From IMG/VR virus record IMGVR_UViG_2713896779_000023: a stretch of 9,351 nt of DNA. One strand, 5' to 3'. Source of the DNA: a virus (lineage: Duplodnaviria > Heunggongvirae > Uroviricota > Caudoviricetes). This document shows positions 1,668 through 8,355 of the stretch, in pieces (within the stretch, counting starts at the first letter, position 1; each line of letters begins with the position of its first letter). A program made the translations under genes and the position numbers. The notes under the pieces were generated by a model. It had not been told where the DNA came from. It was given only the letters and a program-made list of their open reading frames with translations, and made no database searches.

Positions 1668-2306
1668 TTAAATATCTTGTTGAATTTTAAAGCATACTCC
1701 CAATATGCAAGATAGATCATCCAGCATAATTGAAGGGTAGCGAGGATTCGTGGGGACTAAAAGAATATCCGGCCCTTCTATCTCCAGTTTGCGAATGACA
1801 GGCGTTGTGGTCCCTTTGGGTAAGGCAAGGACAATATTTCCTGGTTGTACGATTCGATCGGGATCAACAAAAACTGTTGAACCATTTGGGATGGAAACTC
1901 CACCACCAGATGTCGACATACTGTCACTCTCTAGAACAACAGCAAAGGTATTGGCCGGGATTTCTCCGACAAGCTGCACACAAGAGGTTATTGAGGAATT
2001 TTTCATATAATCACTCCAGCTTGCTGCCTGCTGAAGTGATAGTAGCGGAACCGTTTTTATCGGCGGTAAAGATAGATCAAGCGAATCACCTGTATTTAAC
2101 TCTCCTCCATTAAGAAGCCAATTTTCGTTTACTTTCAATATCTTTGCCAGTGAACTTATGTAACGCGAGGACGGCGCTCCTCCACCGTTCATCCATTGAC
2201 TTACGGAGCCTTTTGATGCGCCAGTGGCATTGACAAGGTCTTTGCCTTTCAAGTTTAGCGCATGCATACGTTGGGTTATGCGTTCAGATATTGTTTGCTT
2301 GTTCAT
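1668..2306 (-). CDS. cI-like prophage repressor (N-terminal XRE-type HTH, C-terminal S24 LexA-like autopeptidase)
   Basis: 212-aa ORF. The N-terminus has an HTH pattern (GKDLVNATGASKGSVSQWMNG). The C-terminus has the Ser...Lys signature of S24 peptidases (ESDSMS ... PVIRKL). It is transcribed divergently from a cro-like gene. No SD precedes the ATG at 2306, consistent with a leaderless PRM-type transcript. Confidence 0.85.
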   Translation of the reverse strand: MNKQTISERITQRMHALNLKGKDLVNATGASKGSVSQWMNGGGAPSSRYISSLAKILKVNENWLLNGGELNTGDSLDLSLPPIKTVPLLSLQQAASWSDYMKNSSITSCVQLVGEIPANTFAVVLESDSMSTSGGGVSIPNGSTVFVDPDRIVQPGNIVLALPKGTTTPVIRKLEIEGPDILLVPTNPRYPSIMLDDLSCILGVCFKIQQDI

Positions 2307-2397: not shown

Positions 2398-2640
2398 ATG
2401 AAAAAATCAGAAGTATTAGGCTATTTTGGCGGAGTTGTTAAAACAGCCGCCGCTCTAGGAACGTCAAAAACCACAGTCAGCATGTGGGGGGAAGACGTTC
2501 CGTGGAAATGGGCGTTGCTAATTCAGGCAGTCACTGCCGGGGCGCTCAAATATGAGTTACACATACCGACGGTTGTCATTCCCGATTCTGATCATAATCC
2601 GCCTTCTAACCAAGGGGGGATTCATGAAAATCAAGCATGA
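2398..2640 (+). CDS. Cro/YdaS-like small HTH regulator (80 aa from ATG 2398; ORF-track start 2350 is probably too far upstream)
   Basis: GGAG at 2388-2391 lies 6 nt before ATG 2398. HTH-like segment VVKTAAALGTSKTTVSMW. Position and orientation match cro. Overlaps the next gene by 17 nt. Confidence 0.7.
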   Translation: MKKSEVLGYFGGVVKTAAALGTSKTTVSMWGEDVPWKWALLIQAVTAGALKYELHIPTVVIPDSDHNPPSNQGGIHENQA

Positions 2641-3049
2641 ACACATCCGCATGGCGATGAATGCCTGGGCGCGTCCTGATGGCGAAAAAGTTCCGGCAGC
2701 TGGAATAACCCAGGCTTATTTTGAGTTGGGTATGACGTTTCCTGAACTGTACGACGACAGCCATCCGGAAGCCCTGGCTCGCAATACCCAGAAAATTTTC
2801 CGCTGGATAGAGAAAGACACCCCTGATGCAGTTGAAAAAATGCAGGCTCTGTTACCGGCGATCGAAAAGGCAATGCCGCCTCTGCTGGTGGCCCGTATGC
2901 GCAGTCACAGCTCTGAATATTACCGTGAGATCGTCGAACGGAGGGATCGGCTGGTGAAAGATGTGGATGATTTTGTCGCAGCGGCGATCGCCTGGGGCAC
3001 CCTGACTAACAGTGGGGGGCAGCCTGGTAATGCTGTTGTCGTGCATTGA
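2624..3049 (+). CDS. YdaT-like protein at the cII position (141 aa)
   Basis: AGGGGGG at 2612-2618 precedes ATG 2624. The N-terminus MKIKHEHI matches my recollection of the Rac prophage YdaT family. It follows a YdaS/Cro-like gene. Confidence 0.6.
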   Translation: MKIKHEHIRMAMNAWARPDGEKVPAAGITQAYFELGMTFPELYDDSHPEALARNTQKIFRWIEKDTPDAVEKMQALLPAIEKAMPPLLVARMRSHSSEYYREIVERRDRLVKDVDDFVAAAIAWGTLTNSGGQPGNAVVVH

Positions 3050-3117: not shown

Positions 3118-4185
3118 ATGGCTAATGCCTGGCTCAGATTGTGGCATGACATGCCAAATGACCCCAAGTGGCGAACGATTGCCAGGGTATCAGGACAGCC
3201 AATCGCAACAGTGATGGCAGTGTATATCCATCTTCTGGTGAGTGCGTCACGAAATGTCACGACATGTCACGGCGTGTCACTACGTGGTCACATTGATGTC
3301 ACGACGGAAGATTTAGCAAGTGCGCTTGATGTGACGGAAGACGTAATTGATTCAATTTTGCATGCAATGCAGGGGCGGGTTCTGGATGGTGACCTTATTT
3401 CCGGATGGGAAAAACGTCAGGTGCTGAAAGAGGACAATGGTAACGTTTCGCAAACGGCAAAATCCCCGGCAGAGCGCAAGAGAGCGCAGCGGGAGCGGGA
3501 AAAGCTGCGGAAACATAATGCTGATTGTCACGATGAGTCACGACGTGTCACGCATCTGTCACGACAAGTCACGACAGATAAAGATACAGATAAAGATACA
3601 GATAAAGATACAGATAAAGATACAGATACAGAATTAAACCCCACACATAACGCGCGCGAGAGTATTCCGACCAGTGAGTCGAATGGTGCGCCGTTGCAGA
3701 CAGCCGAACCTGAATACCTGGACGGCCTGAGCGAACCGATCGGGAAATTTCCGATGACTACTGTCTGGCAGCCGTCGCCGGATTTTCGACAACGGGCAGC
3801 AGTGTGGGGTATGGCTCTGCCTGAGCCGGAATTTACACCTGCTGAGCTTGCCGCATTCCGGGATTACTGGATGGCGGAGGGGAAGGTTTTCACGCAGGTT
3901 CAGTGGGAGCAGAAATTTGCCCGCCACGTGCAGCACGTCAGGGCACAGGTAAAACCAGTCAGCAAGGGGGGAAGCCATGCAGCATCAGGTGGCACGGCAT
4001 CACGGGCAGTTCAGGAAATCCGGGCTGCACGCGAACAGTGGGAACGTGACAACGGATTTATCAGCAACGGAAACGGCCTGGAAGCTGTGGGAGCTCATGG
4101 GGGAGGTGTATTCGAACCGCTGGACTCAGAAGAACGGGGCCGCACCTTCGAAGCTCTGGATTGCCCAGATTGGTGCGATGACTGA
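3118..4185 (+). CDS. replication initiator (lambda-O-like role) with internal iterons and a (DKDT)n linker
   Basis: GAGG at 3109-3112 lies 5 nt before ATG 3118. The gene sits immediately upstream of a P-like gene. It contains two clusters of about 10-bp-periodic GTCACGAC repeats and a 12-bp tandem repeat, an architecture like ori-lambda inside O. The N-terminal sequence is not obviously lambda O, so the family is uncertain. Confidence 0.7.
   Translation: MANAWLRLWHDMPNDPKWRTIARVSGQPIATVMAVYIHLLVSASRNVTTCHGVSLRGHIDVTTEDLASALDVTEDVIDSILHAMQGRVLDGDLISGWEKRQVLKEDNGNVSQTAKSPAERKRAQREREKLRKHNADCHDESRRVTHLSRQVTTDKDTDKDTDKDTDKDTDTELNPTHNARESIPTSESNGAPLQTAEPEYLDGLSEPIGKFPMTTVWQPSPDFRQRAAVWGMALPEPEFTPAELAAFRDYWMAEGKVFTQVQWEQKFARHVQHVRAQVKPVSKGGSHAASGGTASRAVQEIRAAREQWERDNGFISNGNGLEAVGAHGGGVFEPLDSEERGRTFEALDCPDWCDD
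3244..3308. repeat. iteron cluster 1: about 6 copies of (T)GTCACGAC-like motif at roughly 10-bp spacing
   Basis: cgtcacga 3245-3252, tgtcacgac 3255-3263, tgtcacgg 3265-3272, tgtcact 3275-3281, ggtcaca 3285-3291, tgtcacgac 3298-3306. Confidence 0.6.
3526..3576. repeat. iteron cluster 2: 5 copies of (T)GTCACGAC at 10-11-bp spacing; candidate replication origin
   Basis: tgtcacga 3527-3534, gtcacgac 3538-3545, tgtcacg 3547-3553, tgtcacgac 3557-3565, gtcacgac 3568-3575; immediately followed by an A-rich tandem repeat. Confidence 0.65.
3577..3630. repeat. perfect 12-bp tandem repeat GATAAAGATACA x4 plus a partial GATACA
   Basis: Read directly from the sequence; encodes DKDTDKDTDKDTDKDTDT inside the initiator gene. 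Confidence 0.9.
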
Positions 4186-4639
4186 ACAGCAAATCCGTCT
4201 GGTGTGCCGTCAGTGCATGGACCGCTGCCGGGCGGGTGAAACGTGGCCCCCGGACCTGGCTGAGTTTGTTGCGCTGATTTCGGAGAGTGGGGCAAATCCA
4301 TTTGGTCTTACGGTGGATGCCGTGATGGAAGAGTACCGGCGCTGGCGCAATGAATCCTGGCGATACGACGGGAGTGATAAATACCCGTGGCCACAGCCTG
4401 TGCTGTACCACATCTGCCTCGAAATGCGTACCAGAGGGATTGAGCGCCAGATGACGCAAGGTGAGTTAAAACGACTTGCGGAACGGCAACTGACGAAATG
4501 GGCAAAGCATGTTGGTAACGGGATGAGTGTTCCGCCAGTGCGACGACAACTGGAAGGGGCGAAACACCCGCAAGGGCCAACGCCAATTGAACGGCTGAAA
4601 CAGGAATACGAACGCCGGAAGGCAGCTGGTTTTATTTGA
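3977..4639 (+). CDS. lambda-P-like replication protein (helicase loader); start uncertain (3977, 4097 or 4178)
   Basis: By-eye similarity to lambda P in several blocks (ETWPPDLAEFVAL, YPWPQPVLYHICLEMRTRG, GELKRLAERQLTKWAKHVGNG). AAGGGGGG at 3964-3971 lies 5 nt before ATG 3977. Overlaps the initiator gene in a different frame. Confidence 0.7.
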   Translation: MQHQVARHHGQFRKSGLHANSGNVTTDLSATETAWKLWELMGEVYSNRWTQKNGAAPSKLWIAQIGAMTEQQIRLVCRQCMDRCRAGETWPPDLAEFVALISESGANPFGLTVDAVMEEYRRWRNESWRYDGSDKYPWPQPVLYHICLEMRTRGIERQMTQGELKRLAERQLTKWAKHVGNGMSVPPVRRQLEGAKHPQGPTPIERLKQEYERRKAAGFI

Positions 4640-7314: not shown

Positions 7315-7364
7315 NNNNNNNNNNNNNNNNNNNNNNNNNNNNNNNNNNNNNNNNNNNNNNNNNN
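7315..7364. other. run of 50 N (masked or unresolved sequence)
   Basis: Literal n characters. Confidence 1.
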
Positions 7365-8305: not shown

Positions 8306-8355
8306 NNNNNNNNNNNNNNNNNNNNNNNNNNNNNNNNNNNNNNNNNNNNNNNNNN
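8306..8355. other. run of 50 N (masked or unresolved sequence)
   Basis: Literal n characters; the frame relation across it is undefined. Confidence 1.

Follow-up and report, generated by a model that had tools for sequence, protein, structure and literature searches.

A probable replication origin within the initiator gene of a lambdoid Escherichia coli prophage, with two iteron arrays and an A-rich hexamer tract

Can the codons of a protein linker also be the site at which replication of a phage genome starts? This question is raised by a viral sequence of 9,351 nucleotides (nt) (IMG/VR record IMGVR_UViG_2713896779_000023, Caudoviricetes; hereafter the window), in which a gene for a protein of 355 amino acids (3118..4185, plus strand) contains short direct repeats joined to a perfect tandem repeat. 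The original prediction, made from the sequence alone, proposed a replication origin embedded in this coding sequence. Following up this prediction computationally, we conclude with fairly high confidence that positions 3527–3657, together with an upstream array at 3246–3305, represent the replication origin of a lambdoid prophage, embedded in its own initiator gene. Two iteron arrays with a period of 10–11 base pairs (bp) lie there on the same strand, the second abutting the least stable, A-rich duplex of the gene.

The hexamer GTCACG occurs 15 times in the window, compared with an expectation of 4.1 ± 2.1, and none of 200 shuffled sequences reached 15. Nine of these hexamers lie on the plus strand, in two clusters. 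In array 2 (3527..3575, plus strand), five GTCACG cores start at 3527, 3537, 3547, 3558 and 3568, with spacing of 10, 10, 11 and 10 bp, in the same orientation and at about one per helical turn; a single base (A, 3576) separates the array from the tandem repeat. The predicted succession of five repeats at 10–11-bp spacing and four perfect 12-bp copies was confirmed by these coordinates and by Tandem Repeats Finder. The repeat sequence given for the five units holds in part: the GTCACG core is present in all five, but only the units at 3537, 3558 and 3568 match the 8-mer GTCACGAC throughout, with GTCACGAT at 3527 and GTCACGCA at 3547. Array 1 (3246..3305, plus strand) starts 281 bp upstream of array 2 and consists of six units, with GTCACG at 3246, 3256, 3266 and 3298, GTCACT at 3276 and GTCACA at 3287 (spacing 10, 10, 10, 11 and 11 bp). 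A segment 30 bp past array 1, TTGATGTGACGGAAGA at 3326–3341, is a near-duplicate of TTGATGTCACGACGGAAGA at 3293–3311 and may be a degenerate seventh iteron (GTGACG). The core is read in all three frames in turn, as V-T, S-R and C-H (CHDESRRVTHLSRQVTT), because the period of 10–11 bp is no multiple of three, and this identifies the iterons as a feature of the DNA. An explanation of the iterons as a peptide repeat was rejected, based on the three-frame period, the invariant core and the concerted change of motif between lineages described below.

The allelic variation indicates that the iteron repeats are selected as DNA. Fifty-two distinct close alleles from 86 loci yielded seven distinct array-2 strings, in which core positions 1–6 were kept (34/35 units at position 1 and 35/35 at positions 2–6), while positions 7–10 varied. 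Diversity at third codon positions was 0.008–0.012 over array 1 (3268–3327) and 0.000–0.004 over 3598–3657, compared with about 0.06–0.26 elsewhere in the N-terminal half of the gene; at 3508–3597 this measure is inflated by alignment shifts and gaps, and array 2 was therefore analysed unit by unit. Nearly all alleles have five units in array 2. A sixth unit (+10 bp, equivalent to window 3568–3577) shifts the initiator frame, and the open reading frame (ORF) stops at nt 474 in three IMG/VR loci; RefSeq applies the flag ‘frameshifted’ to this kind of allele (strain SCU-104; L005, NZ_CP053284). Judged from these alleles, iteron slippage inactivates the initiator gene in some prophages. In array 1, 21 bp are missing, in frame, in one E. 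coli allele (L009).

The A-rich hexamer tract that follows array 2 (3577..3630, plus strand) is composed of four copies of GATAAAGATACA (3577–3624) and a half unit, GATACA (3625–3630), giving nine GATAMA units; Tandem Repeats Finder reported a period of 12, 4.9 copies and 97% matches at 3574–3632. Array 2 and the tract are translated as ...CHDESRRVTHLSRQVTT-DKDTDKDTDKDTDKDTDT-E... inside ORF 3118–4185, and the translation agrees with the proposal that the tandem repeat encodes a (DKDT)n linker between the N- and C-terminal parts. The GC content (fraction of G and C) falls to 0.25 at 3580–3639. The free energy (dG) of the 40-bp segment in the tract is −42.4 kcal/mol, compared with a mean of −56.5 ± 4.4 over the window; no such segment of the gene is less stable, and only one in the whole 9.35 kb is. 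Its low stability, and the A-richness kept in hosts of about 60% GC, are in line with the suggestion that this tract is a candidate DNA-unwinding element.

The number of hexamers is not fixed. Across 89 related loci, three GATAMA units were found in most and two, four or five in some, while nine were found only in two loci identical to the window. The original prediction anticipated such variation between isolates, and named an invariant number and poor conservation of the DNA as signs against an origin; the number varies and conservation at the DNA level is high. Of the 1231 E. coli records that match, no more than 13 reach 99% identity over the gene, and the four-copy allele is therefore rare. 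From this distribution, the perfect 4 × 12-bp repeat is a rare slippage expansion of a tract that is usually 18 bp (three hexamers) long, and the perfect repeat itself is not required. In the three-hexamer allele, the commonest, the tract (dG −47.5) is again the least stable 40-mer in the gene. Taken across the alleles, slippage hits both repeat types, and the protein tolerates multiples of three at both sites.

The DNA of homologues with 33–90% protein identity to the window initiator was then compared. These comprised metagenome or read-assembly loci (L090, L091, L093, L094, L095 and L092, the protein of the last being listed by NCBI and UniRef under Pseudomonas aeruginosa) and isolated phages or viral records (Ralstonia phage Firinga, spring-water virus MW202785, Aeromonas phage pAEv1818, Escherichia phage Tritos, Pseudomonas phage PACT201 and Microcystis phage Mwe-JY25). 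In 12 of 13 genes, the homologues among them having 37–90% identity, the most repeated hexamer was a motif with a 10-bp period arranged in two arrays. Array 1 lies at about nt 130–165 of the gene (where gene starts are comparable), array 2 about 180–280 bp further downstream, and the A-rich tract next. Both arrays were confirmed in four isolated phages, Tritos, pAEv1818, PACT201 and Firinga. The iteron motif is identical in the two arrays of a genome and different between lineages: GTCACG in the window, Tritos, pAEv1818, PACT201 and L092; CGAACGC in L090, L091, L093, L095 and MW202785; GTAACGC in L094; and GCAACG in Firinga. Across 132 family representatives, the segments at the two array positions shared 1.92 tripeptides, compared with 1.20 ± 0.09 for permuted partners (maximum 1.42 in 200 permutations). 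This concerted change of two separated arrays tracks the lineage of the N-terminal domain, as expected for binding sites of that domain. The A-rich tract is likewise retained: the 30-mer of lowest GC content directly follows array 2 in 10 of the 11 genes compared, and in those ten it has a GC content of 0.17–0.30, with 57–67% A and 73–90% purine on the coding strand. This 30-mer is kept where the GC content of the locus is 59–61%, among genomes spanning 0.42–0.61, and the sequence GATAAAGATA was found again in L090, L091, L092, L094, pAEv1818 and Tritos.

The encoded protein was examined next. By its position in a cI–cro–cII-like–initiator–P operon, the 355-residue product is assigned as the replication initiator. 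Its only Pfam match is the DnaT DNA-binding domain at residues 211–277 (1.6e-17). The N-terminal 136 residues have no Pfam match at E ≤ 10; NCBIfam gave nothing for the protein beyond a sub-threshold DnaT match, and a profile search of PDB sequences gave no relevant match. In contrast, the N-terminal part has strong PHROG matches to ‘replication initiation protein’ families and weak ones to replisome organizer or DnaD-like families (E 1.7e-9 to 2.9e-5), and the NCBI name for close relatives is ‘phage replisome organizer’. In an AlphaFold model built with 63 homologues, residues 12–100 adopt a winged-helix arrangement with a predicted local distance difference test (pLDDT) score of 86–98, with a dip to about 75 over residues 41–60. 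Residues 43–63, encoded by array 1, form the end of a helix and a hairpin at a pLDDT of about 75. The model suggests an N-terminal domain of DnaD/RepA-like winged-helix type without a Pfam family, its DnaD/RepA_N membership being at the level of the fold only. The window lineage has 21 bp extra in array 1 (two iterons, encoding TCHGVSL), which are absent from nearly all homologues and fall in the hairpin or loop of the modelled domain; in most family representatives, own residues 1–98 align to query residues 1–105. The winged helix is followed by a linker predicted to be disordered (about residues 105–200) and by the DnaT-like domain. Within the linker, residues 137–171, encoded by array 2 and the tandem repeat, have a pLDDT below 50. 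The linker codons (CHDESRRVTHLSRQVTT-(DKDT)n) would be dictated by the origin DNA and would encode a disordered spacer tolerant of changes in length.

The N-terminal domain family contains at least 1346 clusters at 50% identity (E ≤ 1e-3). The same N-domain is found with other C-termini, the next gene then encoding a DnaB-like helicase (L090, L091, L092 and Firinga) or a DnaC-like loader (pAEv1818). The DnaT-like C-module (from ...TAAACCCCACACATAAC on) is, in turn, joined to at least two other N-domains, namely, DUF1376 (as in YdaU of Rac) and a helix-turn-helix (HTH) type; each of its three N-domains has linker repeats of its own, and a P-like gene follows in all. In the YdaU-type loci L096 and L097, TGTTCAAACA-type repeats (TGTTCA(A/G)...) are present 33 bp apart, with an inverted copy, at gene nt 300–420, and in the HTH-type locus L098, ACCCAAAAAC linker repeats are present at gene nt 290–490. 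In all three loci, the repeats sit just upstream of the same ...TAAACCCCACACATA(A/G)C junction that the window gene shares with initiators carrying DUF1376 or HTH N-domains, and they are candidates for the iterons of oriJ and other origins of the Rac type. In the window, the conserved junction GAATTAAACCCCACACATAACGCGCGC (3631..3657, plus strand) is the start of the C-module and the joining point for other N-modules. E. coli genomes with other N-domains have matches starting at query 497–518, corresponding to window 3614–3635, which places the exchange point between the N- and C-modules in the A-rich tract. In lambda O, the N-terminal part is responsible for origin recognition and the C-terminal part for loader recruitment. 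Because each module occurs with different partners, we infer a similar division of labour here, in which the N-module and its iterons would form the origin-recognition unit and the C-module the loader-recruitment unit.

The observed anatomy, selection on the DNA, covariation and gene contexts suggest the following mechanism of binding, looping, unwinding and recruitment. Upon induction, rightward early transcription would lead to production of the initiator, the N-domain of which would bind cooperatively to the GTCACG(AC) iterons; the sites, recurring once per helical turn, would all face one side of the helix. Array 1 would probably be bound as well, with the intervening DNA looped or wrapped into a complex resembling the O-some. 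Stress from this initiator complex would open the adjoining A-rich tract, from 3577 to about 3640. The C-terminal DnaT-like domain would then bring the P-like loader and host DnaB to the bubble, and might also hold the single strand. Array 2, next to the unwinding element, would be essential, while array 1 would be auxiliary, acting through looping or wrapping. Expansion of the repeat would lengthen the unwinding element and the linker together.

Several points weigh against this assignment. The homologue of Microcystis phage Mwe-JY25 (33% identity) has no iterons, and the layout is hence not universal at the greatest distance. The two arrays are 181–281 bp apart, and as these distances leave no common remainder, constant helical phasing between them was rejected. 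No DnaA box was detected within or near 3200–3700, and GATC is not clustered near the origin region, the initiator gene having a single site, at 3738. In the literature searched, there was no report of binding, unwinding or autonomous replication for any member of the N-domain family. Array 1 may be part of the origin, an enhancer or a copy-control element. Moreover, selection on the protein may itself favour an acidic D/K/T linker, in which case the A-richness may be partly dual-purpose.

A more far-reaching version of the origin assignment would define a distinct, family-wide class of two-part intragenic origins, with array 1 in the codons of a surface hairpin of the DNA-binding domain, array 2 in the linker, and site and protein co-evolving; (GATAMA)n would then be a slippage-tunable unwinding element, that is, a contingency locus. 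We regard this version as rather unlikely. If it were true, any change of origin specificity would necessarily rewrite part of the protein that reads that origin, and (GATAMA)n would set the efficiency of origin firing or induction differently among otherwise identical prophages.

A first alternative, improbable in our estimate, is that the arrays are control sites (for an autoregulatory roadblock, titration or handcuffing) and that the true start lies elsewhere, for example, downstream of the P-like gene. The presence of two separate arrays would fit such a role, as iteron plasmids use surplus iterons for control. The two extra iterons of Shiga toxin (Stx) phages are bound weakly (PMC7466680). 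In addition, on the minus strand, the reverse complements of the iterons weakly resemble a promoter at 3551–3524; this match is a product of the iteron complements and was not used, and in a promoter and terminator scan, hits were no more numerous than in shuffled sequences. A second feature, a minus-strand hairpin followed by a T run at 3661–3639, depends on G–T pairs and was also set aside. Against control as the main role, array 2 is joined to the lowest-GC A-rich tract in nearly all genes compared, in hosts of very different GC content, and this pairing is the signature of an initiation site rather than of an operator. The replication genes also hold no other repeat cluster or equally unstable segment. 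The two functions are compatible, since array 1 could serve control while array 2 serves initiation.

Less probable still is the explanation that the segment is mainly an acidic low-complexity linker, acting at the protein level, and a recombination joint, the nucleotide repeats being by-products of slippage without a role in cis. The breakpoints of module exchange at 3614–3635, the predicted disorder of the segment, the drift in copy number, the frameshifted pseudogenes that arise by iteron slippage, and the frequent D/K/T-rich runs in the N-domain family would all be accommodated by this explanation. However, it leaves unexplained the 10–11-bp period in three frames, a 6-bp core that stays constant while the spacers vary, the collapse of synonymous diversity and the concerted change of motif in two arrays 180–280 bp apart across four specificity classes, as well as the retention of AT-rich codons (GAT AAA GAT ACA) at loci of 59–61% GC. 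Equally doubtful is binding of the iterons by another factor (a host protein, or the cII/YdaT-like or P-like product): although the neighbouring genes encode DNA-binding proteins and self-binding of the initiator is our prediction, the iteron class tracks the N-domain lineage while the neighbours switch (P-like, DnaB-like or DnaC-like), DnaA boxes are missing nearby, and the known precedents all use a self-encoded initiator (PMC7466680, PMC5703833).

Gene calls, Pfam and PHROG show that the window covers the part of a lambdoid E. coli prophage concerned with immunity and replication. A cI-like repressor gene (1668–2306, minus strand) is followed by cro (about 2401–2640) and by a cII/YdaT-like gene (2552–3049), which directly precedes the initiator gene in order. 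The initiator gene is followed by a gene for a lambda-P-like helicase loader (4178..4639, plus strand; RefSeq start), annotated as ‘replication protein P’ in RefSeq and matching Pfam Phage_lambda_P (1.3e-15) and PHROG 109 ‘P-like helicase loader’, and then by DUF1627 and other early genes. The frame of the P-like gene is open from 3977, giving an overlap of up to 209 nt with the 3′ end of the initiator gene; the Phage_lambda_P match starts at residue 58 of this ORF (nt 4148), ahead of the start given by RefSeq (4178), and PHROG profile 15931 (482 positions) covers the initiator and P together. The true start of P is probably 4097 or 3977, or else the two are fused in some relatives. The initiator gene is 100% identical to a coding sequence of E. 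coli O121 RM8352, and the copies in O157:H7 prophages show 97.6% identity with a 24-bp gap counted. The gene was matched in 1227 of 5426 complete E. coli genomes (about one-fifth), including O157:H7 and O121 prophages, and multiple copies are frequent. RefSeq labels the product ‘DnaT-like ssDNA-binding domain-containing protein’, and no origin feature is annotated.

Other features of the window were also recorded. Just past the A-rich region, an alternating purine–pyrimidine tract, CACACATAACGCGCGCGAGA at 3642–3661, contains a 6-bp indel polymorphism (ACGC------GCG versus ACGCGCGCATGCG or ACGCGCGCGTGCG) and, on the minus strand, receives a low score for a hairpin with a T run behind it. GATC is scarce in the window as a whole, with 18 sites compared with 37.9 ± 5.7 expected, and four of these sites are clustered at 2860–2989, a short way ahead of the initiator gene, in the 3′ end of the cII/YdaT-like gene. 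Three runs of 50 N bases mask the sequence at 1412–1461, 7315–7364 and 8306–8355. The second run probably lies within a hok/sok locus: in a related prophage (L001), the end of an Rfam sok match (113.5 bits) overlaps the first part of a gene of the Hok/Gef family. Colinearity between the window and that prophage is limited to the initiator gene, and the transfer of the sok coordinates is approximate.

The assignment of 3527–3657 and the upstream array as a probable origin gives prophage replication in pathogenic E. coli a concrete cis element that is open to test. It predicts which co-resident prophages share specificity, and hence could cross-activate or compete, and it would explain the odd, length-polymorphic codons of the linker. 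Origin repeats are also a likely reason for the many frameshifted calls of the initiator gene, and may be one for the ‘partial’ calls. With at least 1346 family clusters and four iteron classes changing in concert, the family offers a natural data set on how winged-helix initiators change DNA specificity. The conserved arrangement of two arrays is a feature, within a known origin design, that we did not meet in the literature searched; neither this origin nor the two-array layout was described there, in a search of limited coverage (oriJ/Rac, lambdoid iterons, replisome organizers and RepA_N).

How does this locus compare with known systems? In lambda ori, iterons and an AT-rich tract lie in the middle of O, and the number of iterons varies between phages, altering the length of the protein (PMC7466680). 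The present locus is alike in that the probable origin lies mid-gene, in the codons linking a DNA-binding N-domain and a loader-recruiting C-domain, an AT-rich tract flanks the iteron array on one side, the gene for a P-type loader is immediately downstream, and iteron number varies among relatives and changes protein length. The AT-rich region of lambda is also purine- and A-rich on the O-coding strand. The likeness to ori-lambda on which the original prediction relied is therefore upheld for iterons followed by an A-rich, least stable tract inside an initiator gene, but the initiator is not a homologue of lambda O. The N-domain is unrelated in sequence and has no Pfam match, whereas the lambda O family is Phage_rep_O. 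Lambda iterons are units of about 19 bp with internal dyad symmetry, whereas those found here are asymmetric 6–8-bp cores every 10–11 bp in one orientation. Membership in the lambda O family was rejected, as the N-domain and the iteron form both fail to match. Furthermore, the window gene has another array of this iteron about 280 bp upstream, in codons of the DNA-binding domain, the C-domain is DnaT-like, and the AT-rich tract is a hexamer microsatellite.

DnaD-like ‘replisome organizers’ are known from phages, such as G38P of SPP1, which acts at oriL. The rep gene of the RepA_N plasmid pSK41 has four Rep boxes at its centre, and the Rep protein can do without its linker, which the ori DNA encodes (PMC5703833). 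The window initiator resembles pSK41 Rep in carrying repeats centrally in its own gene, with a linker encoded by origin DNA, binding being predicted here. Neither Pfam RepA_N nor Phage_rep_org_N is matched significantly, and the window initiator differs from pSK41 and the replisome organizers in that its hosts are Proteobacteria, its partner is a lambda-P-like loader, and it has two arrays and a conserved GATAAAGATA-type tract. The YdaU–YdaV module of Rac, the oriJ of which is reported as an active origin (PMC3945230), has in common with the window locus the DnaT-like module at the C-terminus and a P-like gene further downstream; the 3′ half of the window initiator gene has 87.7% DNA identity to ydaU of Rac-SA53, with the same junction ...AAAGATACAGAT...GAATTAAACCCCACACAT.... 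The N-domain of Rac YdaU is DUF1376, unlike that of the window initiator, and the Rac-type linker repeats are TGTTCAAACA units 33 bp apart, not GTCACG. The locus is very probably an origin of the known design seen in lambda ori and pSK41 RepA, occurring here in an unrelated, uncharacterised initiator family.

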